Part shown: positions 1,144-40,020 of the stretch, piece by piece
Position numbering within the stretch: position 1 is the first letter of the stretch
How the letters are laid out: each line of letters starts with the position of its first letter
Origin: Candidatus Parcubacteria bacterium
GTDB lineage: Bacteria > Patescibacteriota > Patescibacteriia > Patescibacteriales > UBA12075
Direction of reading: 5' to 3'
Assembly (NCBI GenBank): GCA_963814275.1
Contig: CAWFCE010000001.1
Location: 67,307 to 131,306, forward strand
DNA length: 64,000 nucleotides
Position numbers and translations under genes: made by a program
The notes under the pieces: model-generated
The model's input: only the letters and a program-made list of their open reading frames with translations
Told to the model about the DNA's origin: nothing
The model's database searches: none

Positions 1144-4100
1144 ACTTCTTCGCCTGATTCCGCCTTTCACGATAAAACAGTCACCTTCCTCGACGCGGCC
1201 AACAACGATTTCCATCTCTCATCCTCCGACACCGCCGCCCGTGATTCAGGCACTTCTACTGCCTATAGCCTATTGCCTACAGCCTATGATATCGACGGCA
1301 CTGCACGCGGAGGCGCGCCGGACATCGGCGCGGACGAGGTGCCGGTCGAATATGTTTCGACGATCTGCGAAAATACGTCCGCGGGGGGGAGTTGTTCGGA
1401 AATGGACTACAGCGACCTGTCCGACTGGGAGGACGCGGTCGAGGCCGATATCGTTTCCAGCGCCACCCGTATTTTCTCCGGCACCGGCACCGGCGAATTA
1501 AGCGAGAATGACAGCGTCTCGCTCTACTGGGGCGGCGCAACCGATTCCGGCATTGCCGGCACCGTGGTCGCCACCACCTCGGACCAGATCATGGTCGACT
1601 GGATAACCGGCACCACTTCGCCGGTAATCGCCCACGCTTCGGACACCTGGCGCAAGGACGCCTCGAACTACTGGACCATTTCCGGCACCGGCGACGACCT
1701 CGGCGCTTCGCCGATCGCGGTAGCCAAGATCGATGGGACGTGGAATGCGAGCGATACAGCACTCGTGACAATCGACGGTTGGACAACATCACGTGATGCA
1801 TATATTAAAGTATATTCAACCGATACCGCCCGGCATGATGGCACCTGGTCATATGATAAGTATCGAAACAGTGCCGGCATGAACAATTATGAACAATTTG
1901 TCAGAACTTCTGGGCTGCAAATGACCTATTTATATTCAGATCAGCATGGCGGTTTCGTAGTATATTCCGACAATCTTTTTCAAAATATTGACTCAAGTAG
2001 CGCTAAAGTAATATCTGCAGTAACAACCGATGCACCCAGCGGCGCGGCGACCATTGATACCTATACGATTTTTATAAATAACACAATATACAACGACCTG
2101 AACCCTACGGGTTATAGCCGCTTGATCGTACTTTCCGGGCGCACTAAGAATCATGTTTATTTCTATAATACCGATTGTATTAACAAGGATGACGGCAGCA
2201 ACAACGGCGGAGATGTAAACTGTTTCTATTACTCCCATACCAATACCGATGTCCACTATTGGAATACGATCGCCTATGTGCCCGATGGTGCCGATATAAA
2301 TAATGGTTCCGCTAGTGGGGATTATAATGTTACAACCGGCGACGGATTGCCGGGGAACAATACAGCCACCAATACTTCACCGGCTTTCGCTGAAATCGAT
2401 AACAATGATTTTCATCTCTCATCCAGTGATACAGTCGCTCGTGATCAGGGAATTGATCTTTCGGATAACCAGTTCCTTGCTTACACCGCAGATATTGACG
2501 GCGACACCCGGCCATTTAACGGTACCTGGGACATCGGTGCCGATGAATATGCGCTCTATACGATCTACCGCAGTGTCGGACCGGGTTCGACCGGCGCGCT
2601 CCTTTGCGCAACCAGCACGAATAACCTAAACATTTCCGGCTCTACCGCCACTTTCGACGGCGGCACGCTCGATAAGATCGGGGTAGGGGACGCGATCGTC
2701 TATAACGCGAGCTCGTCCATTGCCTTCATCTCCGGCCGCAACAATTCGAACTTCTCATATAGCGTTCAGAACGCGACCGGTGTTACTCCGGATACAGTTA
2801 CGGACGACACTGGCTGGTGTATTTTTAGGGCTTATACGTCATTAGCAAACGCTGAGTCCGGCACTACCAATACCAATATCCCAGTATCCTTCGATACCTG
2901 GTCGGATGGGCGTGACCTGGTCAGTAATAAGGAGCAGTGGAATATTGCCTGTTACGCTGATGCATCCGATGGCACAACGGTTGATATCGAAGGATGGACC
3001 ACAGGAATTTCCAATCATCTAAGGATTTTTACACCCAATTCATCCAGCGAAGTCGGTACCAGCCAACGGCATAATGGAGTTTGGTCGGCCAATGGTTATC
3101 GTCTGGAAGTTGATGGCGATACCTTGGACGTCTACGATGATTACGTTTGGATTGACGGATTACAGATCGATACCGCGCCCAACTCTTCCGGCACCAACAG
3201 AATGGGCATCCTGCTCTCAAATAATGAAACCGGCGGCGCTAAAATATCGAATAACATAATTAGATCATCGAATTACGGCGGCAGTGCTAACTATGGAATT
3301 TATGTAGGAGGTAATACTTCGGGAGCGGTAACCTATATATATAACAATATACTGGTGAGCCATAAAACCTATGGTATGTATATTAATGATTATGGCGACC
3401 GGGAAATAATCACCAATAACACTGTTTATAATTGTAATGTCGGTTTTTCGGTAAATTCAGGCCCTGGCCAGCCGGAAGCCTATAATAATATCGCAGCATC
3501 ATGCGATAGTGTTTGCTATGAAAATCTGTCTACCTTATCGGGTAATAATATATCTTCAGATGATACTGCCCCAGGCTCAAATTCGATTGTCAATGCAACC
3601 GTAAAGTTCTTTGACGAATTGAATGGTGATTACCATCTCTCTCCCGACGATACCGCCGCCCTTGACGCCGGCACTTCCTCGGTCTCCGACATCGTCACCA
3701 CCGACATCGACGGCGATCCCATCCATACCTATGACATCGGCGCGGACGATGGTTCTCAGTATTTTGTATCCAGTATCAAGTATCAAGGGGTGGACGCCGA
3801 ATTCGGCACTTTGGCGACCTGGGAAGACGCTAATGACGTTGACCTGACCGCCACGACCACCCTTGTTTTCGATATCGACACCACCACCGGCTATATCCCG
3901 TTCGGCGCCAGCGTGTACGGCACGTCTTCCTTCGCCGAAGCGTCGGTAACAGTAGTGGCTACGACTTCTAACCAGATATTGCTCTACAATATTGCCAGTT
4001 CGACTTTCCAGGACGGTGAATGGGTCTGCGTCGATGGCGCGCCAGCAAATTGCGTCCGACTGTCCGACGCGGGAAACCCGGCTATTGCCGTAGCCAGGAT

Positions 4101-7100
4101 CGACGGCGCCTGGGCCGGGGCGGATACGAGTGCGGTCGATATAGACGGTTGGACAACCGGGAAATATAATTATATCAAGATCTATACGACCGTTACGGCC
4201 CGGCACCAGGGAAAGTGGGATGATAATAAGTATAGAATCATGAAGTCGAATACTACGATCATCACTTCCGAAGAGGAATTTGTCCAAATTGACGGATTGC
4301 AAGTTGGATTCATCGCCGATACCGGCAGCGGAAACTATTTCGCTATTTGGGGTACGGCCGATGGAAGCGGAGAATTCTCAATTTCCAACAATATTGTCAG
4401 GGGAGTGGAAAATACCGGCGGCGGGTATCAGATAGGTATCGTTCCCGCTTATATCTCGGGACAGACAATATCCCGGGTATGGAATAATATCATTTATGAT
4501 TGTACCGGGCCTAACGCGGAAGGCATCGAACAGGATGATACGGATAGCACGACATATTTCTACAATAACACCGTTTATAACTGCAATATCGGTATTTTCT
4601 ATCATAATGGCGGGTCGTTTATTGCCAAAAATAATATTGCTTATAACAATACCGCAAACTATGGCAGTACACCGGGCTCGGAATCGGCTTATAATATGAC
4701 AAGCCAGACTCCTTCCAGTGCGATTGCCTGGGGCGTTGCCGCCGATAATGGCACCACCGATTCTGCCGCCGCGGGAAAACTTATCCAGTCCGGACAGGAT
4801 TTCCTGACGACGGTAAAAACCGGGATGGTAATAAAGAATACCTCCGATAATACTTATACATATGTCACAGCTGTTGATTCCGATATCCAGTTGTCAGTTA
4901 ACGACGACATCATGCTTTCCGGCAAGGTATATGTGATTTACACTAACATGTATGGCCTTCCTGATTTTGTGGATATAGCCAATAACGATCCCCATTTGGC
5001 CCAATTCGATACTGTGGCCAAGAACAAAGGAATAAATCTCTATTCTGATCCATATCTGGCGCTGAACACCGATATTGACGGCACGGCCCGGGGCGGGGCG
5101 ACCGATATCGGCGCGGACGAAGTCCCCGTGGAATTTGTATCTACGATCTGCGAAACCCCGGGAAGCGGGGGGGACTGCGGCAATATGGATTATAGTCATC
5201 TGGGCGGGACCGGCAATTGGGAAGACAAAGTGGAAAGCGACCTGACCGCCGCGGCCACCCGCGTGTTTTCCGGTACCGGTACCGGCGAGCTTGACGAGGA
5301 TGACACGGTCGAACTTTACTGGGGCGGCGCAACCGACTCCGGTATCGATGCCACGGTCGTAGCCACCACCGTGGCCGGACAGATTCTCGTTGACGGGGTT
5401 ACCGGGACGACCTCGCCTGTCGTAGCGCATTCCTCCGATACCTGGCGTAAGGATGCCTCTAATTATTGGACGATTTCCGGAACCGGCGACGACCTGGGGG
5501 CCAGCCCGATCGCGATAGCGAAGATAGACGGAACATGGAATGCTACCGATACGGTTTATCTCAGAATCAACGGTTGGGGGGCGGATTATGATAATTACGT
5601 TAAAATATATACAACCGATATGGCTCGCCACAATGGGGCTGCCGATTATGACGCTTATCGTATTTGGTATGATTATTCCGACGCGCAAAATTACGTTTCA
5701 ATTTCAATTTCCAATGCGGGAAATTATTATATAGAAGGTTTACAAATCTATCCGTCTGATAACTCCATTAGTTTGTCGGGCGGCATTAATTTAGCGAATG
5801 GATGCACTGTTTATGTTTATAATAATTTATTCTTTGGCGGTCCCAAAAGCAACGGCCAGAGAGGCATGTTCAGTATTTATGATCTAAGCGCTAAGGAATC
5901 GAATATATATAATAATATAATTTCCGGTTTAACCTTATGCATATTGGGCGGAGATTATGTCTATAATAATACGTTATATGACTGTAGTGATACCGGGATA
6001 TTAAGCGGTGCTACGATTGCCATAAATAATATCGTTGCCAGCACTACTGATCCTTTTGATGGTACATTCACTGACGGTACGACCAATAATTCAACCGATG
6101 CAGCCGATAGTCCGGGAATAGGCACTAATTATCAAAACCAGACTTTCAGCTTCGTCGACGCGGCTAATGGTGATTTTCATCTGACCAAGGACGATACCGG
6201 CGCCAAAGACAAAGGCGTTGATCTCTCGTCCACCTCCACTTTGTCCTTCAGCGACGACATCGACGGCGACGCCCGCCCGGCCTTTAATGCCTGGGATATC
6301 GGCGCCGACGAATACGCGCTCTATACGATCTACCGCAGTGTCGGTCCGGGCTCGACCGGAGCATTATTATGTGCCACATCCACCAATAACCTGAACATCT
6401 CCGGCTCCTCGGCCACCTTCGACGGCGGAACGCTTGATAATATCGGAGTCGGGGACGCGATCGTCTATAATGCGAGCTCGTCCATAGCCTTCATCTCCGG
6501 CCGCAGTTCCAACTTCGCTTATTCGGTACAAGACGCCGCCGGCGTTACACCGGACGCGGTTACTGATGATACCGGCTGGTGTATTTTCCGGGCGTATACG
6601 TCGCTTCAGAATGCTGTGGACGATGCGCTTGGCGGTACCGAAAACACGGGGATTCCGGCAGCAGTAAGAGATTTTGATACCTGGACCGGCGGGCAGGATC
6701 TGGTGGCCAATAAAGAACAGTGGAACGTAGCTTGTTATGCTGACGCAGCTGATACAGTCGGTTCAGGCGGAGTTGATATCAACGGTTGGACAACCAGTGA
6801 AACTAATTATATTAAAGTTTATACGCCGGTTTCCGCTTCCGAGGTAGGAGTTAGCCAGCGCCATAGCGGCAAATGGGATACGAACGGGTACCGGCTGGAA
6901 GCCACTGGCTACCCGAATCATCTCGATATTTATGACGATTACGTAAAAATCGACGGCTTGCAGGTGAGCATGACCCCCACCAATTCGAACCCCTACCGGG
7001 TAATTTATATCAGGCAAGACAGCGTCAAAGTATGGATTTCCAACTCTATAATAAAAGGGATCGGGGATGCTTCTTATAGCGTAAATTACGGAGTTTTCGC

Positions 7101-10029
7101 CAATGACGCTTATGACGGGACTGTTTATTTCTGGAATAATATCATATACGATGTTGGGGCGGGTATAATCGCCGATACTGGTTCGTCATTCTATGCTTAT
7201 AATAATACTTTTTATAACTGTGATTATGGTTTGAGTTCGGAATGGAAGGCTGGGGTGGGCGGATCCGTTCTGGCTATAAATAATATCGTGCAAAATTGCA
7301 CTGATGGGTTTGATAGTTCATTCAACACTGCTTCCGATTATAATATTTCCGATATTGCCGGCGACCAGCCGGCCAGCGGCGCTCACGACAAGATGGAAAC
7401 TGACGTGATTTTCTTCGATGAATTGAATAAAGATTTTCACATATCCCCGGACGACACCGCCGCTCTCGACGCCGGCACGTCGTCGGTATCGGATATCGTC
7501 ACTACCGACATCGACGGAGCGCCGATCCATACCTACGACATCGGCGCGGACGACGGCAGTCAGTATTTTGTATCTAGTATTAAGTATCAGGGGTTTGATG
7601 CTGAATTCGGCACTTTGGCGACCTGGGAAGACGCTAATGATGTCGATCTGACCGCGACCACCACGCTCGTCTTCGATATCGACGCCACCACCGGTTACAT
7701 CCCGTTCGGCTCATCGCTTTACGGCACGACTTCTTTTGCCGTGGCTTCGACCACGCTCGTGGCTACTTCGTCGAACCAGATACTTCTCTACAATATAGCG
7801 AGTTCCACCTTCCAGTCCGGCGAATGGGTCTGCCTGGAAGGCGCGCCCGCCAACTGCGTACGCCTGGCCAACGCCGGCAACCCGGCCATTGCCGTCGCCA
7901 AGATCGACGGAGCCTGGGCCGGGGCGGATACGAGCGCGGTAACTATAAATGGCTGGACGACTGGGAAATATAACTATATCAAGGTTTATACGACTGATAC
8001 GGCACGGCATCAGGGGAAGTGGGATGATAATAAGTATCGTTTAGTTAACAATGGGATTATATTTAATGAAAGCAATGCTATAGAATTTGACGGCATACAG
8101 TTTTATCGCACCGGAACAACAGGGGGGGGCGGAACTATACTATTTAACTATCTTTCAAGTGCTAATATTACTTTTTCAAATAATATTGTTAAAAGAGATT
8201 CATATTATGATTGTTTGAAAGTTTTTGGTAAGTCAACTAGCGTTTATAAAATTTATAATAATATTTTATACGATTGTGGCGGATCAGGAATAGTTTTAGA
8301 CAGCGGAGTAGGTGGTGGTGGATATATTTATAATAATACAGTCAGCGATTGTGGAAATGGTTTTTATTTTATCAATGCAAATTTGTTTACAATGAAAAAC
8401 AATATTTCCTATAACAATATAGACAATTACTCCGGCTCTTACAGTAATTTAACTGCCAGCCATAATCTTTCTGGACCGACACAGTCGAATGCTCCTGGGT
8501 CTAGTCCGGTAAATAATGCCACAGTAACTTTCCTGGATTCAGCTAATCAGGACTTCCGTCTAATGCCCGAGGATACGGCTGCGCGCGACGCGGGCACGAA
8601 TTTAAGTGCGGATGTGAACCTGCATTTCACGGACGACGCGCAGGGGAATGAGCGTTATGACGCCAAATGGGACATCGGCGCGCTCGAAGGGCCGACGATT
8701 ATTTACCGCAGCGTCGGCAACGACACGAGCAACCTGGCCGGAGCCGGCAATACCGTGACGATCACGAAAGTATCAGGCGGCAACGCGACCACGACCGCAG
8801 TTTTCGCCAATGAACTGCCGGATAATGTGGGCGTGGGGGATGTATTGCAATACGGCGGCAGCGGTTATTACCAATTAGCCTTCATCACCGCCCGCGCCTC
8901 CTCCACCCAGTACGAAGTCCAGGCACGCGACGGCACCCTGCCGGATGCCACCACCTCGGCCCCGGTCAGTATCTTTCGGGCGCACGAATTCCTGGATGAC
9001 TGGGAGGATCAACTTGAAGTTGATGTGAACGACGGGATTGACGGCAGTGTTGACGAGCTAGTTCTGTATCCCAAAGCGAGCCTTGATTTAACAGCTTCCA
9101 ATACCGCCATGTTCGTACCCTGCTACGCTTCGACAAGTCCTGACAATTTAGCAGTTAATATAGACGGATGGACGACTGCCACAACCAGCTATATAAAAAT
9201 ATATACACCGAAAGATACTAATGAAGTAGGCATAAGCCAACGCCATAATGGTTTATCGGGTAGCGGTTATGTTCTAAAAAATAGTTATGATCAGCAGATA
9301 CTAATAAATGATTCAAATGTTAAGTTGGTTGGGATTGAAAGCGATTGTAGTGATTCAACAACTGGAAGCTACTGTGTTCATATATGGGCAAATACTGGCC
9401 AGTCAAATACTAATTTAACAATCGATTCATGTTTATTGGATAATAGACGTAATGACACGACATTGGGATCGGGCATTAGGTTAAATAATGCTGGTACGAG
9501 TTCAACTTTTTATCTAACCAATAATATTATTATGACTGATAATCAAATAGGGATTTACTTAAGATTTGACGAAGGTGGTTCAAACGCTAGCATATATATT
9601 TATAACAACACAATATCGTCATCGACAACAGGCATCTCGTCCTATCCTGATGCATATGTAGTTGTTAAAAATAACGTAATTTTCAACACTTCCGATGATT
9701 TTTCTAGCTCTTTTGATATTCTCGACCACAACGCCTCCGACGACCTGGACGGGGACAATCCGATCGATATCAGTCCGGGGGCGAGTGAGGCGGACGGCTG
9801 GGCGGCGGCTTTCGTCGATTATGCCAATGGGGATTTCCGGATCAAGAGCATTTATTCGCCGCTCTATGACGCCGGTACGCCGATCACGCTCATAACCGAT
9901 GACATCGTGGGAACGGCCCGCCCGCAGAACAATGCTTATGACGTCGGCGCTTTCGAGTTCACCGGCGCGCCGAAATTCAAGATAAAGGGCGGGACGATCA
10001 AGATGCAGGGACACTTGGAATTTAAGTAA
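1141..10029 (+). CDS. Giant repetitive right-handed beta-helix surface protein or adhesin. The track ORF is 1273..10029 (2918 aa); the frame is open from 1099 and homology starts at 1141.
   Basis: A long ORF with repeated modules. Recurrent signatures are IDGWTT..YI(K/R)(I/V)YT..ARH.G.W, NNI/YNN rungs typical of parallel beta-helices, and D.DG..R..DIGADE caps of the kind seen at the ends of beta-helix surface proteins. Confidence 0.85.
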   Translation, partial: NTSSPDSAFHDKTVTFLDAANNDFHLSSSDTAARDSGTSTAYSLLPTAYDIDGTARGGAPDIGADEVPVEYVSTICENTSAGGSCSEMDYSDLSDWEDAVEADIVSSATRIFSGTGTGELSENDSVSLYWGGATDSGIAGTVVATTSDQIMVDWITGTTSPVIAHASDTWRKDASNYWTISGTGDDLGASPIAVAKIDGTWNASDTALVTIDGWTTSRDAYIKVYSTDTARHDGTWSYDKYRNSAGMNNYEQFVRTSGLQMTYLYSDQHGGFVVYSDNLFQNIDSSSAKVISAVTTDAPSGAATIDTYTIFINNTIYNDLNPTGYSRLIVLSGRTKNHVYFYNTDCINKDDGSNNGGDVNCFYYSHTNTDVHYWNTIAYVPDGADINNGSASGDYNVTTGDGLPGNNTATNTSPAFAEIDNNDFHLSSSDTVARDQGIDLSDNQFLAYTADIDGDTRPFNGTWDIGADEYALYTIYRSVGPGSTGALLCATSTNNLNISGSTATFDGGTLDKIGVGDAIVYNASSSIAFISGRNNSNFSYSVQNATGVTPDTVTDDTGWCIFRAYTSLANAESGTTNTNIPVSFDTWSDGRDLVSNKEQWNIACYADASDGTTVDIEGWTTGISNHLRIFTPNSSSEVGTSQRHNGVWSANGYRLEVDGDTLDVYDDYVWIDGLQIDTAPNSSGTNRMGILLSNNETGGAKISNNIIRSSNYGGSANYGIYVGGNTSGAVTYIYNNILVSHKTYGMYINDYGDREIITNNTVYNCNVGFSVNSGPGQPEAYNNIAASCDSVCYENLSTLSGNNISSDDTAPGSNSIVNATVKFFDELNGDYHLSPDDTAALDAGTSSVSDIVTTDIDGDPIHTYDIGADDGSQYFVSSIKYQGVDAEFGTLATWEDANDVDLTATTTLVFDIDTTTGYIPFGASVYGTSSFAEASVTVVATTSNQILLYNIASSTFQDGEWVCVDGAPANCVRLSDAGNPAIAVARIDGAWAGADTSAVDIDGWTTGKYNYIKIYTTVTARHQGKWDDNKYRIMKSNTTIITSEEEFVQIDGLQVGFIADTGSGNYFAIWGTADGSGEFSISNNIVRGVENTGGGYQIGIVPAYISGQTISRVWNNIIYDCTGPNAEGIEQDDTDSTTYFYNNTVYNCNIGIFYHNGGSFIAKNNIAYNNTANYGSTPGSESAYNMTSQTPSSAIAWGVAADNGTTDSAAAGKLIQSGQDFLTTVKTGMVIKNTSDNTYTYVTAVDSDIQLSVNDDIMLSGKVYVIYTNMYGLPDFVDIANNDPHLAQFDTVAKNKGINLYSDPYLALNTDIDGTARGGATDIGADEVPVEFVSTICETPGSGGDCGNMDYSHLGGTGNWEDKVESDLTAAATRVFSGTGTGELDEDDTVELYWGGATDSGIDATVVATTVAGQILVDGVTGTTSPVVAHSSDTWRKDASNYWTISGTGDDLGASPIAIAKIDGTWNATDTVYLRINGWGADYDNYVKIYTTDMARHNGAADYDAYRIWYDYSDAQNYVSISISNAGNYYIEGLQIYPSDNSISLSGGINLANGCTVYVYNNLFFGGPKSNGQRGMFSIYDLSAKESNIYNNIISGLTLCILGGDYVYNNTLYDCSDTGILSGATIAINNIVASTTDPFDGTFTDGTTNNSTDAADSPGIGTNYQNQTFSFVDAANGDFHLTKDDTGAKDKGVDLSSTSTLSFSDDIDGDARPAFNAWDIGADEYALYTIYRSVGPGSTGALLCATSTNNLNISGSSATFDGGTLDNIGVGDAIVYNASSSIAFISGRSSNFAYSVQDAAGVTPDAVTDDTGWCIFRAYTSLQNAVDDALGGTENTGIPAAVRDFDTWTGGQDLVANKEQWNVACYADAADTVGSGGVDINGWTTSETNYIKVYTPVSASEVGVSQRHSGKWDTNGYRLEATGYPNHLDIYDDYVKIDGLQVSMTPTNSNPYRVIYIRQDSVKVWISNSIIKGIGDASYSVNYGVFANDAYDGTVYFWNNIIYDVGAGIIADTGSSFYAYNNTFYNCDYGLSSEWKAGVGGSVLAINNIVQNCTDGFDSSFNTASDYNISDIAGDQPASGAHDKMETDVIFFDELNKDFHISPDDTAALDAGTSSVSDIVTTDIDGAPIHTYDIGADDGSQYFVSSIKYQGFDAEFGTLATWEDANDVDLTATTTLVFDIDATTGYIPFGSSLYGTTSFAVASTTLVATSSNQILLYNIASSTFQSGEWVCLEGAPANCVRLANAGNPAIAVAKIDGAWAGADTSAVTINGWTTGKYNYIKVYTTDTARHQGKWDDNKYRLVNNGIIFNESNAIEFDGIQFYRTGTTGGGGTILFNYLSSANITFSNNIVKRDSYYDCLKVFGKSTSVYKIYNNILYDCGGSGIVLDSGVGGGGYIYNNTVSDCGNGFYFINANLFTMKNNISYNNIDNYSGSYSNLTASHNLSGPTQSNAPGSSPVNNATVTFLDSANQDFRLMPEDTAARDAGTNLSADVNLHFTDDAQGNERYDAKWDIGALEGPTIIYRSVGNDTSNLAGAGNTVTITKVSGGNATTTAVFANELPDNVGVGDVLQYGGSGYYQLAFITARASSTQYEVQARDGTLPDATTSAPVSIFRAHEFLDDWEDQLEVDVNDGIDGSVDELVLYPKASLDLTASNTAMFVPCYASTSPDNLAVNIDGWTTATTSYIKIYTPKDTNEVGISQRHNGLSGSGYVLKNSYDQQILINDSNVKLVGIESDCSDSTTGSYCVHIWANTGQSNTNLTIDSCLLDNRRNDTTLGSGIRLNNAGTSSTFYLTNNIIMTDNQIGIYLRFDEGGSNASIYIYNNTISSSTTGISSYPDAYVVVKNNVIFNTSDDFSSSFDILDHNASDDLDGDNPIDISPGASEADGWAAAFVDYANGDFRIKSIYSPLYDAGTPITLITDDIVGTARPQNNAYDVGAFEFTGAPKFKIKGGTIKMQGHLEFK

Positions 10030-10061
10030 ATCCGCGGATTTAATGCAGATAAATATTCTAG

Positions 10062-10106
10062 AATTTTCAATTTTCAATAATCCAATAATCCAATCAATAT
10101 TTAATA
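10062..10106. repeat. Left arm of the long inverted repeat flanking the four-helix-bundle gene
   Basis: aattttcaattttcaataatccaataatccaatcaatatttaata is approximately the reverse complement of 10495-10546. The core ttttcaataatccaat recurs at 21697. Confidence 0.75.
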
Positions 10107-10124
10107 ATTAATTTTCAATTAGGT

Positions 10125-10493
10125 ATGACAAGGAGGAATAACTCATTCGGTTATGATCTTGAGGAAAGATTGGCTCTTTTTGGTGAACAAGTGATCGATT
10201 TAGCGAAAAAGTTGCCTCAGAATGCTATTAACCAAAGACTGGTCCCCCAAGCAGTCAGTTCGTCCGGTTCTGCCGGTGCCAACTATTGTGAAGCTTGCGA
10301 GGCGGAAAGTAAAAAGGATTTCCGCCATAAGATTGGCATTACCAAGAAAGAAATCAGAGAAAGTAAGCATTGGCTGAGGTTGATTGCCCGGGCCAACGAA
10401 CAATACGCCGACGACTGTCGCCGCCTCTGGAAAGAAGCACATGAACTGCTTCTGATATTTTCCAAAATACTCCAGACGAGCAAAGCCAATTAA
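10125..10493 (+). CDS. Four-helix-bundle protein (23S rRNA intervening-sequence protein family)
   Basis: 122 aa. The motif SSSGSAGANYCEACEAESKKDFRHKIGITKKEIRESKHWLRL matches the S.GANI.EG......DF...L.IA.GS..E family pattern. The gene is nested between inverted repeats. Confidence 0.75.
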   Translation: MTRRNNSFGYDLEERLALFGEQVIDLAKKLPQNAINQRLVPQAVSSSGSAGANYCEACEAESKKDFRHKIGITKKEIRESKHWLRLIARANEQYADDCRRLWKEAHELLLIFSKILQTSKAN

Positions 10494-10494
10494 A

Positions 10495-10546
10495 TATTAG
10501 ATATTTAATATTGATTGAAAATTGGATTATTGGATTATTGAAAATT
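10495..10546. repeat. Right arm of the inverted repeat flanking the four-helix-bundle gene
   Basis: The sequence ...attgattgaaaattggattattggattattgaaaatt is the reverse complement of the left arm apart from a small indel. Confidence 0.75.
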
Positions 10547-10611
10547 ATAAATCCGGTTTGCTTTTACCCAATCATTTTAGTATAATAATTATACATTTAA
10601 CCCGCAATCCC

Positions 10612-11562: not shown

Positions 11563-11574
11563 ATAAATATCTCT

Positions 11575-11751
11575 AAATTTTAATTTTTTAATTTTTGAAT
11601 TTTATAAATAATTTCTTAATTTTTAATGTTTTAAACGGTCCCAATTCTCCTTGTTTAGAAATTAAGATTTAGAATTTATTTAAAAATTTAAAAATTACAA
11701 AATTAAAAATTATCTACGATTAATTTACAAAATTAAAAATTTAAAAATTAA
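11575..11751. repeat. AT-rich imperfect palindromic element, copy 1
   Basis: The arm ...ataaataatttcttaatttttaatgttttaaac pairs with gtttagaaattaagatttagaatttatttaaaaatttaaaaattacaaaattaaaaatt. It is homologous to 12503-12648. Confidence 0.7.
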
Positions 11752-11808: not shown

Positions 11809-12501
11809 ATGTCCAACAATTTCCAACAAACCGTCAATCTGAAAGAGCAGATGGAACGGGCGAAGCGGCCGGCCGAACCCGCGCCGAAGCCGGAACCCAA
11901 GCCGGAACCGATAGTCAAACCAACCCCGAAACCGGTGCCGAAGCCGGTCATCAAGGAAAGGCCGGTGATGAAGAAGAAGCCGTTGTCCCGGGCATCGTCG
12001 ATCGATGAAGTCTACCGCGATGAAGACAGGGAAGAAGAGAAGCGCAAGCGCGAATTCCAGACGATTGAACGCGCCAAAGAAAGCAATAATCCGGCCGGCA
12101 TATATAAGATCGCGACCATCATCCTGGCCCTGGCCCTGGTTGCGGCTTTTGCCTATTATTTCCTTTTCTCTTCCCGCAGTGAAACGCCAGCCCCACCGGC
12201 CGGCGGCGAAGCGGCTTGGTATAAGATCGAATTGACCAACGGCGAATCGTATTACGGCCAGGTGGTCGATACCACCGCCGACCCGATCGAGATCAAAAAC
12301 GTCTATTACGACTATGACCAGGCCAATAATACGGACGGCCAGCCGGAAGACAAGGGCGCGAACCTGAGGATCGTCAAAATGGGCAAAGAAACCTACGGCC
12401 CGAGCGGCACGATGCTGGTACCCCGGGCGCAGATCCTTAAATTCGACGTATTGGCGGATAATAGCAAAGTGTTGAAGGCGATATTGGATTATGAGAAATA
12501 G
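11809..12501 (+). CDS. Hypothetical bitopic membrane protein with a Pro/Lys-rich N-terminus
   Basis: 230 aa. It has a PKPEPKPEP low-complexity region, one hydrophobic helix (IYKIATIILALALVAAFAYYFLF) and a C-terminal globular part. I recognised no family. Confidence 0.55.
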   Translation: MSNNFQQTVNLKEQMERAKRPAEPAPKPEPKPEPIVKPTPKPVPKPVIKERPVMKKKPLSRASSIDEVYRDEDREEEKRKREFQTIERAKESNNPAGIYKIATIILALALVAAFAYYFLFSSRSETPAPPAGGEAAWYKIELTNGESYYGQVVDTTADPIEIKNVYYDYDQANNTDGQPEDKGANLRIVKMGKETYGPSGTMLVPRAQILKFDVLADNSKVLKAILDYEK

Positions 12502-12502
12502 T

Positions 12503-12648
12503 AATTTTAATTTTTAAATTTTTAATTTTATAATTTTATAAATAAATCTAAATTTTTAATGTTTTAAACCATTCTGTTTTTATAGTCGGTTTAGAGATTA
12601 AGATTTAAAATTTATTTAAAAATTAAAAATTACAAAATTTAAAAATTG
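12503..12648. repeat. AT-rich imperfect palindromic element, copy 2
   Basis: It shares taatttttaatgttttaaac and gtttagagattaagatttaaaatttatttaaaaattaaaaattacaaaatttaaaaatt with copy 1. Confidence 0.7.
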
Positions 12649-12681
12649 TAATTATTGATTTATTACAAATTTTATATTATA

Positions 12682-16627: not shown

Positions 16628-16729
16628 AGTATTAAGTATCGAGTATTAAGTATTAAGTATTTATTTTTTCAGGGTAGGATATAAAGTATAATACTTAATA
16701 CTTAATACTTAATACATAATACTCGATAC
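16628..16729. repeat. Short-period AT-rich hairpin of the GTATTAAGTAT family
   Basis: The arm agtattaagtatcgagtattaagtattaagtat pairs with atacttaatacttaatacttaatacataatactcgatac. The same word family occurs at 39941-40015. Confidence 0.7.
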
Positions 16730-16736
16730 ATTATAT

Positions 16737-17789
16737 ATGAAAGATGAAATATTAAAATTAAAAAATAAGATTTTGAAAGAAATAATCGGCGTGGATGGCC
16801 TGAAATCGCTTGAGGAGCTGCAGACCAAATACCTGGGACGCAAGGGCGAATTGGCCGGGATGATGAAGCAACTTACCAGCCTGGAAGAAGGGAAAAAACG
16901 GGAAATCGGCCAGATCCTGAATGAAGCCAAAAAGGAGCTGATGGAAAAATTCAGGGCGGCCCGGGATAAATTTACCGCCGGCCCGGGACAGGAGTTCGTT
17001 GATGTTACTTTGCCGGGGACCAAGCCGCCTGCCGGCCACCTTCATCCGATCACCCAGATCCAGAACGAACTGGAAGACCTGTTCCGTTCGATGGGTTTCA
17101 TGATATTGGACGGCTCCGAATTGGAAAGCGAATACTATAATTTCGAGGCGCTCAATGTGCCCTATTGGCACCCGGCGCGCGATATGCAGGATACCTTTTA
17201 CGCGGAAGACATACCGGACCCTGCTACCACGAAAAACAGCAAAGATAAAAAAGGCAAAGGCCTGGTGATGCGGACGCAAACCTCGCCGGTCCAAGTGCGG
17301 GCGATGCAGAAATACGGCGTCCCCCTGCGCTGTGTCGTGCCGGGCCGGGTTTTCCGCAACGAAGCGACCGACGCGGTGCATGAAACCACTTTCTATCAGC
17401 TGGAAGGCTTGATGGTCGGTGAGGGAATATCATTGGCCAATCTGATATCAGTAATGAAAGAAATGCTTAATGGGATATTCGACCAAGAAGTAAAGATCCG
17501 CATCCGCCCCGGTTATTTTCCGTTCGTCGAACCCGGTTTGGAAGTGGATATGGCCTGCACCCAATGCGGCGGCGCCGGCTGTCCGGCCTGCAAGCATTCC
17601 GGCTGGCTGGAGATGATCGGCTCGGGCATGGTCCATCCCAATGTCCTCCGGGCGGGCGGTGTCGATCCGGAAAAATACTCCGGCTTTGCCTTCGGCCTGG
17701 GAGTGACCCGCTTGGCGATGATGCGGTACGGCATCGATGATATCAGATTGTTCAATAGTGGAGATATGAGGTTTTTGGAACAATTTTGA
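16737..17789 (+). CDS. pheS: Phenylalanine--tRNA ligase alpha subunit
   Basis: 350 aa. The C-terminal class II core is FPFVEPGLEVDM...GWLEMIGSGMVHPNVL...GFAFGLGVTRLAMMRYGIDDIRLF. Confidence 0.95.
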   Translation: MKDEILKLKNKILKEIIGVDGLKSLEELQTKYLGRKGELAGMMKQLTSLEEGKKREIGQILNEAKKELMEKFRAARDKFTAGPGQEFVDVTLPGTKPPAGHLHPITQIQNELEDLFRSMGFMILDGSELESEYYNFEALNVPYWHPARDMQDTFYAEDIPDPATTKNSKDKKGKGLVMRTQTSPVQVRAMQKYGVPLRCVVPGRVFRNEATDAVHETTFYQLEGLMVGEGISLANLISVMKEMLNGIFDQEVKIRIRPGYFPFVEPGLEVDMACTQCGGAGCPACKHSGWLEMIGSGMVHPNVLRAGGVDPEKYSGFAFGLGVTRLAMMRYGIDDIRLFNSGDMRFLEQF

Positions 17790-18075
17790 TAAATTCTACC
17801 GAACTTCAGTTCGGGTTCGCCGTATGATCCGGCGGACTAAAGTCCGCCAAACCCCGGTTAAAACCGGGTAGAAGATTAATTCTACCGAACTTCAGTTCGG
17901 GTTCGCCGTATGATCCGGCGGACTAAAGTCCGCCAAACCCCGGTTAAAACCGGGTAGAAGATTAATTCTACCGAACTTCAGTTCGGGTTCGCCGTATGAT
18001 CCGGCGGACTAAAGTCCGCCAAACCCCGGTTAAAACCGGGTAGAAGATTAATTCTACCGAACTTCAGTTCGGGTT
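17788..18075 (+). repeat. Tandem array (3 full copies plus 24 nt) of an 86-nt multi-hairpin REP/BIME-like unit
   Basis: Units start at 17794, 17880, 17966 and 18052. Each contains the hairpins CCGAAC-TTCA-GTTCGG, GGCGGAC-TAAA-GTCCGCC and CCCGGTT-AA-AACCGGG. A GGTAGAA/TTCTACC inverted repeat spans each unit junction. Confidence 0.9.
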
Positions 18076-18687
18076 TATAAAAGGAGGAAATGTTTAATGA
18101 CAACAAAAGCCAATTAACATGGCCGGATGATACAGTATATTTTCTTACAGATTCCGCGTATTTGCACTATCCATATTTTCGGACAGATGAACAAAAGCAA
18201 ATCGTTCTGGATCAATTCAAAAAATTACAATCGGAAATGAATGTATCGATAATGGCCTATAGCATCGCCATAAACCATTATCATATAATGTTCTATTTGC
18301 CTAAGGGCAAGAGAATGGATAATATAAAAAAATCGTTAAGGGGAGGGATATCATTCTTGTATAAGAAAAGATTTTCAGTTACGTATCCGGAAATGCGGCA
18401 AAGCAGAAAAATTTATAGGGTATGGGATGAAGATGCCAGTATAAAAATAAAAGGATATATTATTGGAAATTTGCTAAAACATAAAGAAGTCGGAACATTT
18501 AATGACTTAAGAGAAAATAAATTTTCAAGCTATTGGTATTATGCGGATAAATATGGCGATAATGAGGCGAAGGAACTCGTTTATCAGGTTATCGATGCGG
18601 ATGAAGACAGCTGGGGAGAAGTAAATATTAATAAATTAAGGAATATTCAAGCTAAAAAAACATAACCCGAACTGAAGTTCGGTAGAA
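18052..18687 (+). mobile_element. RAYT-type unit: a Y1/HUH transposase-like gene bounded by perfect 24-nt inverted hairpin repeats
   Basis: TTCTACCGAACTTCAGTTCGGGTT at 18052-18075 is the exact reverse complement of 18664-18687. The right repeat overlaps the stop codon. Confidence 0.7.
18090..18665 (+). CDS. IS200-like / REP-associated tyrosine transposase (RAYT)-like HUH protein
   Basis: 191 aa. VYFLTDSAY is a YF.T-type N-terminus, NHYHIMFYLP is an HUH motif, IYRVWDED resembles W...F.D, and YIIGNLLKH resembles the catalytic-Tyr motif YIH.NPVKH. AAGGAGG sits just upstream of the start. Confidence 0.65.
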   Translation: MFNDNKSQLTWPDDTVYFLTDSAYLHYPYFRTDEQKQIVLDQFKKLQSEMNVSIMAYSIAINHYHIMFYLPKGKRMDNIKKSLRGGISFLYKKRFSVTYPEMRQSRKIYRVWDEDASIKIKGYIIGNLLKHKEVGTFNDLRENKFSSYWYYADKYGDNEAKELVYQVIDADEDSWGEVNINKLRNIQAKKT

Positions 18688-18728
18688 ATACTTAGAAATT
18701 ATTATTTAGAACTTAGGAATTATAAAAT

Positions 18729-21173
18729 ATGTATCTCTCTCTAAACTGGTTAAAAGATTTCGTTTCCCTGCCCCGGTCGCTCAAGCCGGAAGAGCTGGCG
18801 GTCAAATTGACGATGCATACGGTCGAGATCGACGGCGTCACCCGGGAAGCGGAAAAATACAAGAACGTGGTTGTCGGCAGGATATTGGCGGTCAAACCCC
18901 ATCCCAATGCCGATAAATTGCAGCTGGCCGAAGTCGATGTGAAATCGGAAACTCTGGAAATAGTCTGCGGCGCGCCGAATATCGAAGCCGGCCAGCATGT
19001 GCCGGTCGCTTTGGTCGGCGCCGTCCTGCCCAACGGGCTTATGATCAAGGAAGCGGAGATACGCGGAATGAAATCGCGCGGCATGCTGTGCGCCGAAGAC
19101 GAACTGGGGCTGGGCGAAGACCACGCGGGAATCATGGTCCTCGGCGGCAAAGCCAAAATCGGACAGCCATTTGCCGATTATCTCGGAGTCAAAGACGTCG
19201 TATTCGAAGTAGACAACAAATCGATCACCCATCGGCCGGACCTCTGGAGCCATTACGGCATGGCACGCGAAATAGCCGCTTTCCTGGATTGCCCCTTCAA
19301 GGCCATTAGCCCCGCGCCCGTGAAGGTATCCGCCAAGAATAAGGACAAAAACCGCATTTCACTTACGGTGAAAGTCGATGACCACAAGCTTTGTCCCCGC
19401 TATATGGCCGTGGCCATCGGCAATATCAAGATCGAACCTTCTCCCCAGTGGCTGCAGGACCGCCTGGTCGCGGCCGGAACCAGGCCAATCAATAATATCG
19501 TCGATGTGACCAATTATGTGATGCTGGAGCTGGGACAGCCCCTGCATGCTTTTGGCGCCTCATTGATCACCCGCTCCAAAACCGATAACGGCCAAGCGAA
19601 TATTCTGGTCAGGAAGGCCAAGAAAGGGGAGAAGATAACTACCTTGGACGGAGTGAACAGGGATCTGCGCGAAGATATGCTTCTCATCACCGACGGCGAG
19701 CGGCCGATAGCGATTGCCGGCGTTATGGGCGGGGAAAACAGCGAAGTAAAAGAAGATACCGAGACAGTGATATTGGAGTCGGCCAATTTCGACCATGTGT
19801 CCATCCGCCTGACCTCGGCCGCGCTGGACCTGAAAACAGAAGCGGCCAAGCGCTACGAAAAATCCCTTGACCCCAATCTGGCCGAATTGGCCCTCTGCCG
19901 CGCCGTCGAACTTATCAAAAAGATCCTGCCGCAAGCGGCGGTAGTCAGCGAGATCGCCGATGTCAAACAATTCACGCTCAATCAGGGTCCGGTAAATATC
20001 GACTGGGACTGGCTTGGGAAATTCCTTGGCCAGGAATTGGATAGGGACCGGGTGCTTAAGACTTTGGCCGCTCTCGGCTTTACTGTCATTCAGGACGATA
20101 AGCTCCTCAAGGTATCGATACCGACCTGGCGCGCGACCAAAGACATTTCGATCCGCGAGGATATTGCCGAAGAAATTGCCCGCCTGTTCGGCTACGGTAA
20201 TTTCAAGCCATCCATGCCGCAGGTGGAAATGGCCACCCCGGAGATCAACCGGCCGCGTTTGCTCGAACGGCGCATAAAGACCATTTTAGCCGGCGCCGGA
20301 TTGGCCGAGGTATACAATTATTCTTTTGTCGGCGAGGACCAGCTCAAAAAAATGGGCATTGACCATCGCCGCCACTTGCGCCTGTTGAATCCGGTCAACC
20401 GCCACCAGGGCCTCCTAAGGCAATCGCTGGCGCCGAATCTGCTCTTAAATATTCCGACCAACCAGGCCCGTTACGGCAATATCCGCTTGTTCGAGGTCGG
20501 CAGCGTATTTTTGCCGATCGAGGGCGGGATCAATAGGGATGACCAGGGCGGCCATTTGCCCTACCAGGAAGACCGGCTGGGCGTATTGGCGGCCGGTGAT
20601 CCGGGCGATGATGTTTTCGGCACCGTTAAAGGGTTATTGGCTTTTCTGCTGGAAAGGCTTAACTTGGAGGTTGTTTATAATGCATTAGAACACGGACCGA
20701 ACTGGGCGGAACCGGGACAAAGCGCGGAAATCAGCGTCTTCAGCCAGTCGATCGGCACTGTCGCCAAGGCTGGTGTTGCCTGCGCCAAAAAATGCGGGAT
20801 AAAAAAGGCGGCCGCGGTCGCAGAGCTTAGCCTGCCCAAGCTTTTGAAATTGTATTCGCAATATAGCGCAAAGAAATTCCGGGAATTCGCCAAGTATCCG
20901 CCGCTAGTCAGGGATTTGGCTTTTATTGTCAGGGAAAACATAATATACAACGATATATTCCGTGAGATATCCGATTTTCACGAGTATATCCGCTCGGTGG
21001 AATTATTCGACGTATATCATGGGGAGAAATTGGGCAAAAGCAACAAGAGCCTGGCTTTTCACGTCGCCTATCAGGCGGACCGCACCCTGGCCGGGGATGA
21101 AGTAGACAAGATACAGGCCGGATTGGTCAAACATTTGGAAGACAAGTTCGAGGCGAAGGTGAGGAATTTTTAA
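18729..21173 (+). CDS. pheT: Phenylalanine--tRNA ligase beta subunit
   Basis: 814 aa. It starts MYLSLNWLKDFV, has the tRNA-binding domain VVGRILAVKPHPNADKLQLAEVDV, and shows B3/4, B5 and C-terminal anticodon-binding-like regions. Confidence 0.95.
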   Translation: MYLSLNWLKDFVSLPRSLKPEELAVKLTMHTVEIDGVTREAEKYKNVVVGRILAVKPHPNADKLQLAEVDVKSETLEIVCGAPNIEAGQHVPVALVGAVLPNGLMIKEAEIRGMKSRGMLCAEDELGLGEDHAGIMVLGGKAKIGQPFADYLGVKDVVFEVDNKSITHRPDLWSHYGMAREIAAFLDCPFKAISPAPVKVSAKNKDKNRISLTVKVDDHKLCPRYMAVAIGNIKIEPSPQWLQDRLVAAGTRPINNIVDVTNYVMLELGQPLHAFGASLITRSKTDNGQANILVRKAKKGEKITTLDGVNRDLREDMLLITDGERPIAIAGVMGGENSEVKEDTETVILESANFDHVSIRLTSAALDLKTEAAKRYEKSLDPNLAELALCRAVELIKKILPQAAVVSEIADVKQFTLNQGPVNIDWDWLGKFLGQELDRDRVLKTLAALGFTVIQDDKLLKVSIPTWRATKDISIREDIAEEIARLFGYGNFKPSMPQVEMATPEINRPRLLERRIKTILAGAGLAEVYNYSFVGEDQLKKMGIDHRRHLRLLNPVNRHQGLLRQSLAPNLLLNIPTNQARYGNIRLFEVGSVFLPIEGGINRDDQGGHLPYQEDRLGVLAAGDPGDDVFGTVKGLLAFLLERLNLEVVYNALEHGPNWAEPGQSAEISVFSQSIGTVAKAGVACAKKCGIKKAAAVAELSLPKLLKLYSQYSAKKFREFAKYPPLVRDLAFIVRENIIYNDIFREISDFHEYIRSVELFDVYHGEKLGKSNKSLAFHVAYQADRTLAGDEVDKIQAGLVKHLEDKFEAKVRNF

Positions 21174-21280
21174 CTGTTGATGTTTTTAATTATCAGCAAC
21201 CCAGTGACTCAATCAATTTTCTAATTGACTAATTGTCTAAATTATCCGTTTCTTGTTATTAGCCAATTAGAGAATTGATA

Positions 21281-21337
21281 ATTGATTGAAAACCTGCCTG
21301 CCGGCAGGCAGCTTGGATTATTGGATTAGTGAAAATT
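21281..21337. repeat. Solitary arm of the IVS-type hairpin, carrying a nested 20-nt GC-rich palindrome
   Basis: attgattgaaaa[cctgcctgccggcaggcagc]ttggattattggattagtgaaaatt equals 10510-10546 apart from the bracketed insertion (21293-21312) and one mismatch. Confidence 0.8.
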
Positions 21338-21366
21338 ATTTAAAGATTATATAAAATCTAAAAATT

Positions 21367-21651
21367 ATGTTTGAAAATTCCAAAGATTTATTGAACATTG
21401 CCATTGCCCTGTCCGTTTTCGGCTTTGCCGTTTTTTCCTGCTGGGCGATCTATTATCTGGCCCGGATCTTGGGTACGGTATTCGGCGCGGTCAAAGACAT
21501 GCGCGACCGCCTGCACAAGCTTGATGAGCTGATCAAAGCGATCAAGGACAAGATCGAACATTCAACCTCTTATCTTCTGCTTATCAGCGAAGGGGTCAAG
21601 AAACTGGTCGAGGTGATTAAGGAGCATACGGACAAAGGCAAGGATAAATGA
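21367..21651 (+). CDS. Small membrane/coiled-coil protein (hypothetical)
   Basis: 94 aa with one N-terminal hydrophobic hairpin (IAIALSVFGFAVFSCWAIYYLARILGTVFG) followed by a charged helix. Confidence 0.5.
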   Translation: MFENSKDLLNIAIALSVFGFAVFSCWAIYYLARILGTVFGAVKDMRDRLHKLDELIKAIKDKIEHSTSYLLLISEGVKKLVEVIKEHTDKGKDK

Positions 21652-21696
21652 TGCGACTTGTAAATTTCATGTTAATATCATGAATAGAGTTTTATT

Positions 21697-21827
21697 AATT
21701 TTCAATAATCCAATTATCCAAACAATATTAAATTTTCAATATCAAATATTTAAACTGTGCAATTTGAAAATTGGATATTAGATATTTGATATTTATTGAA
21801 AATTGGGTTACTGGATTATTGAAAATT
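21697..21827. repeat. Empty copy of the IVS-type hairpin: both arms are present with no ORF between them
   Basis: The left arm aattttcaataatccaattatccaaacaatatt resembles 10068-10100. The right arm attgaaaattgggttactggattattgaaaatt resembles 10515-10546. Confidence 0.7.
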
Positions 21828-21861
21828 AAAAAAGACGGTTATTTTAATTAACCGTCTTTTT
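21828..21861. terminator. Bidirectional rho-independent terminator; it serves topA on the minus strand
   Basis: The stem aagacggtta / taaccgtctt is flanked by an A-run and a T-run, 37 nt beyond the topA stop. Confidence 0.7.
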
Positions 21862-24136: not shown

Positions 24137-24221
24137 GATTTGAAAATTTGAAATTAGAAATTTGAAATTAGAAATTCGGACATAAGCAAATAAACGAATT
24201 TCTAATTTCCAGTTTCCAATT
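24137..24221. repeat. Short-period AT-rich hairpin of the GAAATTAGAAAT family
   Basis: ggatttgaaaatttgaaattagaaatttgaaattagaaattcg pairs with cgaatttctaatttccagtttccaatt. Related words occur at 35285-35430 and 37027-37195. Confidence 0.65.
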
Positions 24222-30811: not shown

Positions 30812-30880
30812 TTATTGAAATACTTTGCGTGAGGGCTGGAATTGATAATTGAAATAGGCTATGAAGTAGATAGGCTATGA

Positions 30881-30970
30881 AACAATAAGCAATAAGACAT
30901 AAGTAATAAGCCTTCTTTTGAAGCTTATATTCTTGATTACAGGCTTATTGCTTATGTCTTATTGCTTGTT
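30881..30970. repeat. Short-period hairpin of the AATAAGC family
   Basis: aacaataagcaataagacataagtaataagcc pairs with ggcttattgcttatgtcttattgcttgtt. A related copy (aataagtaataagacataagcaataagtc) is at 55936-55970. Confidence 0.7.
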
Positions 30971-35266: not shown

Positions 35267-35270
35267 AATA

Positions 35271-35438
35271 AAAACTAAATCCTAAACTCTAATTTCTAAA
35301 CAAATTCAAATGCTCCAAATTCAAAATTCAAAACTCGCGGAATATGCGGCAAGGGCATATTTAAATGACCCGTTTTGATTTTTTGGCCATTTGAATTTGG
35401 AATTTGTTTAGAATTTAGAAATTAGAGTTTAGGATTTT
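35271..35438. repeat. Long (~65-bp arms) imperfect AT-rich hairpin
   Basis: aaaaactaaatcctaaactctaatttctaaacaaattcaaatg...caaaattcaaaac pairs with gttttgatttt...catttgaatttggaatttgtttagaatttagaaattagagtttaggatttt. Confidence 0.75.
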
Positions 35439-39935: not shown

Positions 39936-39940
39936 TTTTT

Positions 39941-40015: not shown

Positions 40016-40020
40016 ATTTA

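Follow-up and report, generated by a model that had tools for sequence, protein, structure and literature searches.

A four-helix-bundle gene set between inverted arrays of tandem heptamers recurs as a cassette outside rRNA genes in Patescibacteria and other phyla

Intervening sequences (IVSs) of 23S rRNA that carry an open reading frame (ORF) for an S23p, or four-helix-bundle, protein are found in Leptospira, Coxiella, Xanthomonas and Brucella. The S23p proteins of rRNA IVSs are very numerous and structures have been solved, and to our knowledge they have no known role outside diversity-generating retroelements (DGRs). Arrays of tandem heptanucleotides, known from cyanobacteria since 1990, were later noted in Xanthomonas, Geobacter and Beggiatoa as well, and we know of no binding partner for them. 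Here we analyze a gene of the S23p family and the inverted repeats that enclose it in a 64,000-nucleotide stretch of a Candidatus Parcubacteria bacterium genome (assembly GCA_963814275.1, contig CAWFCE010000001.1, positions 67,307 to 131,306 of the forward strand; this whole stretch is hereafter called the window), together with related loci from other genomes. The gene and its arms form a cassette of ~490 bp, each arm consisting of about four to five tandem 7–8-nt units and an irregular inner part. This anatomy is conserved across phyla and in finished genomes, the cassette typically lies co-oriented with its upstream gene and is transferred as a unit, and its protein is under selection.

In the Coxiella 23S IVS, tandem heptamers (GACAGAT, three to four copies) lie just before the S23p ORF, and the IVS has a 28-bp terminal stem and is excised by RNase III (PMC4990558). 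Geobacter metallireducens contains 49 elements made of four heptanucleotide repeats in tandem, and paired sites with four or five tandem units on opposite strands; these are attributed to an "unidentified global regulator" (PMC2700814). In Beggiatoa, the commonest end point of TAACTGA arrays is 1 nt ahead of a start codon (PMC4679880). In the available part of S2 Table A of PMC4692102, the Xanthomonas arrays (GGGAATC-type) are mostly four-unit, and many form inverted pairs inside operons (gltB-gltD, groES-groEL, atpA-atpG). Array #15 of X. campestris, a four-unit array in the same part of that table, lies 6 nt past bccP, with a 17-nt overlap at the start codon of XCC0516, the gene for the protein crystallised as the pentamer 2GSC; the array is tabulated there without an inverted partner. 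It is thus already known that rRNA IVSs are stem-flanked, and PF05635 proteins outside rRNA are known as well. In the literature searched, including PMC4990558, PMC2700814, PMC4679880 and the available part of PMC4692102, we found no tie between PF05635 and heptamer arrays, and no account in which inverted arrays of about four tandem heptamers systematically enclose the non-rRNA genes in different phyla and move with them as a unit.

The window gene (10125–10493, + strand; PF05635/TIGR02436, S23p/Avd-like) encodes a protein of 122 aa whose family membership is supported by profile, PDB and structure-model matches. The sequence-only reading of the window had assigned this ORF to the 23S-IVS-type four-helix-bundle family, and the assignment holds, with clear matches above both curated profile cut-offs (PF05635 "23S_rRNA_IVP", 47.3 bits, cut-off 33.8, E = 2.6e-12; TIGR02436 "four helix bundle protein", 65.9 bits, cut-off 24, E = 3.2e-18). 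These two are the sole profile matches of the ORF, which has no HUH/Y1 or other known catalytic motif. An AlphaFold2 model made with 50 homologues as input (pLDDT 92.9) contains four long helices (residues 12–29, 34–58, 63–90 and 92–121), and its best Foldseek matches are 2RLD (TM 0.75–0.84) and Xcc0516 (2GSC; TM 0.79–0.86). The first of these, the solved pentameric protein BT_0352, is also a sequence match (phmmer, E = 1.5e-8). Foldseek further matches the model to the DGR accessory protein Avd (4DWL, 8UBE), at a sequence identity of 11–14%. By analogy with 2RLD and 2GSC, which have five chains each, the 122-aa protein is predicted to be a homopentamer. It is basic (isoelectric point, pI, 9.2), as its relatives uniformly are (median pI 9.3, 10th–90th percentile 8.8–9.6), and in this clade the family protein is under purifying selection (median ratio of nonsynonymous to synonymous rates, dN/dS, 0.12 over 38 pairs). 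The protein is identical to a database entry (P0001) that has a paralogue of 89% identity (P0002).

Inverted repeats at 10062–10106 and 10495–10546 had been noticed around this ORF, and our repeat search and Tandem Repeats Finder (TRF) analysis bear them out, refining the left arm to 10063–10119 (+) and the right arm, its complement, to 10496–10552 (+). The two arms are 57 nt each, 77% complementary and 376 nt apart, and the left arm stops 5 nt short of the start codon. In the predicted RNA fold of 10050–10560 (−143.4 kcal/mol, z = −5.2) the arms pair into a closed stem and the ORF occupies the loop; none of 100 shuffled sequences folded as well. Each arm contains a perfect 20-nt core, CAATAATCCAATAATCCAAT (10075–10094 and 10521–10540). 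The outer block of the left arm is made of tandem units, AATTTTC in 2.4 copies (10062–10078) and the 8-nt CAATAATC in 2.5 copies (10075–10094), and inward of this block come CAATCAATATTTAAT and a final TTTTCAAT; the right arm holds ATTGGATT in 2.5 copies at 10521–10540. The left-arm sequence is conserved in the closest relatives (loci L001, L084–L087 and L012), and the arrangement of the window arms is common, nearly base for base, to the closest relatives from other metagenomes. The tandem make-up of the arms from 7–8-nt units, overlooked in the sequence-only reading, is their most informative feature.

We surveyed 80 loci from species-representative genomes and 80 from metagenomes, with relatives at 53–84% identity, which yielded 163 usable related genes. 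The labelled sources of these loci include Patescibacteria, Thermodesulfobacteriota/Deltaproteobacteria, Planctomycetota, Verrucomicrobiota, Ignavibacteria, Dehalococcoidia, Zixibacteria and others. Flanking inverted repeats were tested by local alignment scores of the flanks against shuffled sequences and against other genes of the same loci, a test that replaced a comparison of RNAduplex energies with displaced windows, which was confounded by AT-rich flanks. For 79% (128/163) of the related genes the flanking inverted repeat scored above every shuffle, whereas the same score was reached by 2.7% of the 484 other genes in the same loci (Mann-Whitney p = 2e-38), several of these control genes being mere neighbours of a cassette. 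Median arm length is 41 nt, the median distance from the start codon to the inner end of the left arm is −0.5 nt, and from the stop to the right arm it is 11 nt. A BLAST search with E. coli 16S and 23S rRNA found the gene inside rRNA at 0 of the 160 loci; only two loci, L005 and L095, hold any rRNA, at 5 kb and 2.7 kb from the gene. The survey strongly supports the proposal that inverted repeat and ORF together form a discrete cassette that is not specific to rRNA, and for this clade the rRNA in the family name is a historical accident. The closest species-representative relative (L001, 279–749; 84% identity) has a left arm near-identical to that of the window, no right arm and an ORF of 156 aa, and may be a decaying or fused copy; its contig is labelled Campylobacterales and looks like a binning error for a Patescibacteria-type sequence.

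The arms in the survey are tandem heptamer arrays. Their autocorrelation reaches 0.60 for lag 7 and 0.51 for lag 14 and ranges from 0.21 to 0.41 for the remaining lags tested; in 74 of 102 arms lag 7 scores best. When the arms are read from either end inward, the unit consensus is AATnnCA, and 55 of the 146 TRF units of the cassette zones match all five fixed positions, where 6 are expected after shuffling of the unit letters. The window arms fit this heptamer pattern loosely. The commonest array length is four units, and a geometry of five repeats for five subunits, which we had considered, was dropped on this ground. Many arms share an architecture of four to five heptamers, a 4-nt spacer and further heptamers, the spacer being 4 nt in 25 of the 39 arms that have a phase break. 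Period-7 arrays are ~6-fold denser within 150 nt of the genes (149 in 109 kb) than elsewhere (215 in 997 kb). Away from the cassettes, period 7 is still the commonest period in the surveyed loci, and of the 279 arrays of period 7 or 14 that lie outside cassette zones, 82 are accompanied by an inverted partner no more than 600 nt away. In cassettes with AATGnCA units (L120 at about 2960–3000, and similar loci), the heptamers contain ATG and the array encloses the predicted start codon; one 7-nt unit more or fewer would move the upstream ATGs by one frame, a possible route to phase variation.

Similar cassettes are present in finished sequences. A tblastn search of complete plasmids returned distant relatives (33–39% identity) in cultured organisms. 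In two strains of Planktothrix agardhii (plasmids p1; L165 and L166) the gene lies between drmD and pglX, flanked by (AATCCCC)4–6 (AATCGTA)3–4 and the complement (inverted-repeat scores 58 and 53), and the numbers of AATCCCC and AATCGTA units differ between the two strains. These arrays, at about 1360–1480 and 1845–1990, are placed within a defence operon (pglX/MmeI-type gene), and past the right arm the left array is present once more, as a direct copy. Nostoc flagelliforme carries a perfect 31-nt inverted repeat, (AATTCAA)4 / (TTGAATT)4, between hypothetical genes (score 62), and in a plasmid of Nostoc sp. TCL26-01 (L168, 1492–1848) arrays of (AAGTAAA)3 and more flank the gene between cas2 and cas1 (score 59). 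In Bernardetia, where the gene lies between a fabH-type synthase and an M20 hydrolase, the inverted signal is weak (score 31) and direct arrays are found instead. A family gene at cmr3/cmr2 has been published (PMC3936711); with the Nostoc TCL26-01 case it suggests that the association of the family with CRISPR loci reflects insertion into operons and not a Cas function.

We found a strong orientation bias with respect to the upstream gene. The upstream neighbour is co-oriented with the cassette gene in 94% (129/137) of cases, against a baseline of 74% for adjacent genes in the same loci (p = 1e-9), and the median upstream gap is 56 nt, little more than the length of an arm. Co-orientation with the downstream neighbour, at 77%, equals the baseline. 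No conserved neighbourhood was detected: the neighbours are unrelated housekeeping genes, 150 neighbouring proteins match 148 different Pfam families, and the 25 most frequent of these families include neither a reverse transcriptase nor a transposase or integrase. The four-helix-bundle protein is not a functional partner of its neighbours.

Thirteen pairs of loci, each with at least 400 nt of flank on every side, share 78–90% nucleotide identity that is confined to the ORF and its arms, with unrelated flanks. The shared stretch comprises the ORF plus about 25–75 nt upstream and 40–110 nt downstream, which corresponds to the arms, and the clearest case is L120/L129 (90% identity over 521 nt). 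The cassette thus occurs in unrelated contexts as one unit, arms included. Arm divergence is about half the synonymous rate. The proposal in the sequence-only reading that the cassette is mobile gains indirect support from the 13 pairs. No target-site duplication was seen: over 117 cassettes the longest flanking direct repeat averaged 4.18 nt, compared with 4.04 nt in permuted pairs.

That the same arms recur in the window without the ORF had also been proposed, and copies of this kind were counted over the 64 kb. With up to 3 mismatches allowed, the arm core motif has 6 occurrences, where 0.01 is expected. One copy is an ORF-less hairpin at 21691–21833 (59-nt arms, 76% complementary, 25-nt loop) between a 94-aa ORF (21367–21651, +) and topA (−); its arms are 89% identical to those of the filled copy (left arm 42/47, right arm 57/64), which confirms the recurrence. 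The homology of the right arm begins at 10488 and thus covers the last codons and the stop codon of the gene. A partial, degenerate copy lies at 21210–21340, with a right-arm core (21313–21339) identical at 26 of 27 positions, and is interrupted at 21294–21311 by a GC palindrome, CTGCCTGCCGGCAGGCAG. This perfect GC-rich palindrome has two copies in the window (21294–21311 and 49802–49819; 0 expected), the first placed as if inserted in the degenerate right arm. A weak match to the arm core at 30798–30817 (−), with 3 mismatches, is an uncertain member of the arm family.

At least nine other long AT-rich hairpins in the window are built of 7–8-nt units with unrelated unit sequences, most of them with no ORF between the arms. 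By TRF and repeat search, ORF-less hairpins with units of their own lie at 11574–11712, 12502–12654, 16628–16735, 24152–24221, 30884–30970, 35270–35437 and 39933–40027. The units of these other hairpins include TAATTTT, AGTATTA, ATTTGAA/AATTTCC, CAATAAG and ATTTAGA, and several of the hairpins span an intergenic spacer almost to the base. The gene at 11809–12501 is bracketed on both sides by hairpins of one family.

The window cassette lies between a gene for a 2918-aa beta-helix protein upstream and one for a conserved 316-aa Patescibacteria protein downstream. The sequence-only reading had placed it outside rRNA, between protein-coding genes, and this was borne out over the full 64 kb: the Rfam families, those of rRNA and tRNA among them, all stay below their gathering scores, and BLAST with E. 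coli 16S and 23S rRNA gives no match in the window. Core chromosomal genes are present in the window (a UvrD-type helicase gene, pheS/pheT, topA, dprA, hisS, relA/spoT, ftsA and ftsZ), and the best protein matches of the region are to Parcubacteria/Patescibacteria. A promoter scan upstream of the cassette ORF found no sigma-70-like site on the same strand. A syntenic Parcubacteria contig (L163) has the order giant surface protein, 316-aa orthologue, 206-aa protein, UvrD/PD-(D/E)XK, 125-aa protein and pheS. The equivalent spacer there holds no ORF and instead an ORF-less hairpin of unrelated sequence at 4818–4988 (62-nt arms, 82% complementary, 47-nt loop, ~15-nt periodicity). At ~58% amino acid identity in the gene next to this spacer, the two contigs are too distant to tell insertion of the ORF from deletion of a cassette.

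Three other features of the window are recorded here. Two giant ORFs are present at 1273–10029 (2918 aa) and 40021–46596 (2191 aa); the former gives a right-handed beta-helix match, and its translation contains large internal duplications in which blocks several hundred residues long are nearly identical. A 64-nt unit in 2.1 copies (95% identity, 52595–52730) overlaps the end of ftsZ (51431–52609) and runs beyond it. A probable element of the type formed by repetitive extragenic palindromes (REPs) and REP-associated tyrosine transposases (RAYTs) lies at 17788–18690, between pheS (16737–17789) and pheT (18729–21173). It consists of an 86-nt unit in 3.3 copies (99% identity, 17788–18075), each unit with the palindrome CCGAACTTCAGTTCGG, a 191-aa ORF (18090–18665) and an inverted partial repeat (18664–18690); the ORF weakly matches "REP-associated tyrosine transposase" (NF047646, below cut-off at E = 1.4e-9) and Y1_Tnp (PF01797, E = 1e-4).

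Taken as a whole, we judge it somewhat probable that the gene and its arms are an IVS-type cassette with no promoter of its own, which is transcribed by read-through, whose arms pair and which RNase III probably cuts. Transcription would proceed from the upstream gene, a view supported by the upstream co-orientation, the short median gap and the lack of a promoter-like site in the window. In the transcript the arms would pair to a duplex of ~45–57 bp with the ORF in the loop, and host RNase III may cut this duplex, as it does in the 23S rRNA IVSs that carry the same gene. Such processing is favoured because of the 94% co-orientation, the missing promoter-like site and the published excision of the rRNA versions (PMC4990558). 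The cut would release a small mRNA and leave the host transcript or rRNA functional, and this tolerance would allow it to reside in operons and in rRNA genes alike. As DNA, the cassette would spread as a unit with no target duplication, most likely by recombination between similar repeat arrays, and the ORF-less hairpins could be landing pads or deletion derivatives. The four-helix-bundle protein most likely binds the repeat arrays.

Several observations weigh against this account of excision and spread. In the sense RNA stem, G-U mismatches are in no excess over A-C mismatches (133 versus 135), and RNAalifold analysis of 11 close relatives gave 0 compensatory pairs, the paired columns being near-invariant CAAT/ATTG cores that are uninformative on the stem; the constraint therefore looks sequence-specific, like that of a binding site, rather than purely structural. 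The commonest array, with four units, is unlike the five-fold symmetry of a pentamer, and about 20% of the related genes have no detectable arms. The cassette of Nostoc TCL26-01 is antisense to both neighbours, the arrays flanking the Bernardetia gene are direct and not inverted, no target-site duplication beyond chance was found, and no recombinase accompanies the cassette. The window contains many ORF-less hairpins of unrelated unit sequence, and the one in the L163 spacer implies that such hairpins exist independently of the gene. The steps that we infer are transcription, pairing and RNase III cleavage, together with the mode of DNA transfer and the binding of the arrays by the protein. 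Some variable units are matched in both arms (the AATAATCC units of the window, AATTATC in L086), which suggests that the two arms evolve in concert. These arm data are compatible both with an array of binding sites whose inversion is incidental and with a long duplex that tolerates single mismatches.

The main rival takes the arms to be operator or binding-site arrays for the pentamer or another factor, on DNA or single-stranded RNA, with pairing secondary; we regard it as possible but not probable. Putative binding of this kind could autoregulate the gene or act on the many ORF-less arrays of the genome, and it can coexist with RNase III cleavage of the cassette. It would account for the invariant cores, for the lack of covariation at the variable positions and of a G-U bias, for an AATnnCA motif conserved across phyla while the rest of the unit varies, for the recurrent four heptamers, 4-nt spacer and further heptamers (25/39), and for a left arm that overlaps the start-codon region. 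The protein is basic and conserved and its structural relatives include Avd inside the DGR ribonucleoprotein, and dispersed four-heptamer arrays, often inverted pairs in operons, occur in Xanthomonas and Geobacter with no known binding protein in PMC2700814 or the available part of PMC4692102. The Beggiatoa arrays that end 1 nt before a start codon (PMC4679880) would fit as well. Set against these points, four units do not match a pentameric protein, nucleic acid binding by standalone family members is putative, and the units of the ORF-less hairpins differ widely in one genome although the window encodes one such protein. Binding alone leaves the inversion of the arrays and their 75–90% complementarity unexplained.

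The remaining alternatives are each contradicted by at least one test. The many ORF-less long hairpins of other units (at least nine in the window, many filling spacers exactly) and the ORF-less hairpin with 62-nt arms in the orthologous L163 spacer would be expected if the gene had been captured in the loop of an ordinary host hairpin, such as a terminator, processing site or stabiliser, with arms of host sequence. Helices 9, 25 and 45 of rRNA would likewise be compatible with insertion at a hairpin apex. We consider this origin unlikely, as the arm sequences travel with the ORF between genomes and contexts, the closest relatives from other metagenomes carry the same arm sequence, and flanking inverted repeats are found at 79% of these genes versus 2.7% of others in the same loci. 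Less likely again is a classical DNA transposon, or an element resembling a miniature inverted-repeat transposable element, with terminal inverted repeats and a transposase acting in trans. No target-site duplication was found at the 117 cassettes, the element has no ORF besides the four-helix bundle, the 25 most frequent neighbour families include no transposase, and the arms are internally repetitive arrays with no conserved terminal sequence; a strong orientation bias to the upstream gene would be unexpected for a symmetrical element of this kind. Inverted terminal arms, ORF-less arm copies and unrelated contexts do agree with transposition, and the window holds a RAYT-like Y1 transposase gene (18090–18665), which has its own, different flanking repeats. 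A role as the Avd accessory protein of a DGR is very improbable. The fold resembles bAvd (4DWL) and the Avd of DGR ribonucleoprotein structures, and PF05635 is the commonest family near DGR reverse transcriptases (PMC10053308), but there is no reverse transcriptase among the annotated window proteins (core genes), no RVT family among the 25 most frequent families of the 150 neighbours, and no template/variable repeat pair was seen.

We tentatively propose, with more doubt than confidence, that PF05635 pentamers are the cognate proteins of the tandem-heptamer arrays and hairpins dispersed in the operon spacers of many bacteria, including the cyanobacterial short tandemly repeated repetitive (STRR)-type arrays, the Xanthomonas GGGAATC arrays, the Geobacter sites and the candidate phyla radiation hairpins of the window. 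Gene and arms would be the autonomous form, the hundreds of ORF-less arrays the non-autonomous form or regulatory targets, in the manner of RAYT and REP, and the 23S IVS a special insertion site. The finding connects two decades-old puzzles, the function of the S23p family and that of the heptamer arrays, and if gene and arrays are one unit both functions are directly testable with existing proteins, Xcc0516 and BT_0352. The rRNA intervening sequence would be recast as one landing site of a general cassette tolerated by operons. This would explain the family genes inside cas, DISARM/BREX, ATP synthase and other operons, which have been read there as functional partners, and the arms would give annotators a DNA signature for the element.

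Among known systems, DGR Avd shares with the window protein a four-helix-bundle fold, which in Avd forms a basic, nucleic-acid-binding pentamer (4DWL, 8UBE), and the window cassette differs in having no reverse transcriptase or template/variable repeat and in the low identity of 11–14%. In REP/REPIN elements with their RAYT, a small gene likewise lies between inverted copies of a repeat that is also dispersed gene-less as intergenic hairpins. This likeness is limited, with 1–3 ORF-less arm copies in 64 kb and ORF-less hairpins in the window that are mostly of other unit sequences, and here the protein is a four-helix bundle and not an HUH Y1 transposase, while the arms are tandem arrays and not short GC-rich palindromes. 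The 23S rRNA IVSs have the same protein family, an ORF in the loop of a stem of terminal inverted repeats and the same orientation as the host transcript, and the Coxiella IVS adds heptamers before the ORF and an RNase III-cut stem of 28 bp (PMC4990558). Unlike these, the window cassette lies between protein-coding genes with no rRNA in 64 kb, its cleavage is predicted by analogy, and purifying selection acts on its ORF in this clade, in contrast to the Coxiella ORF, which is reportedly untranslated and in decay. The dispersed heptamer arrays (Xanthomonas GGGAATC, cyanobacterial STRR-type, Geobacter, Beggiatoa TAACTGA) have in common with the cassette a 7-nt unit repeated about four times per array, and many such ORF-less hairpins occur in the window. 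In PMC2700814, PMC4679880 and the available part of PMC4692102 they are often inverted pairs 20–70 nt apart in operon spacers, and some abut start codons. Here the gene sits between the two arrays of the pair and the unit, AATnnCA, differs; the window copy is an ordinary member of this heptamer-armed cassette group.

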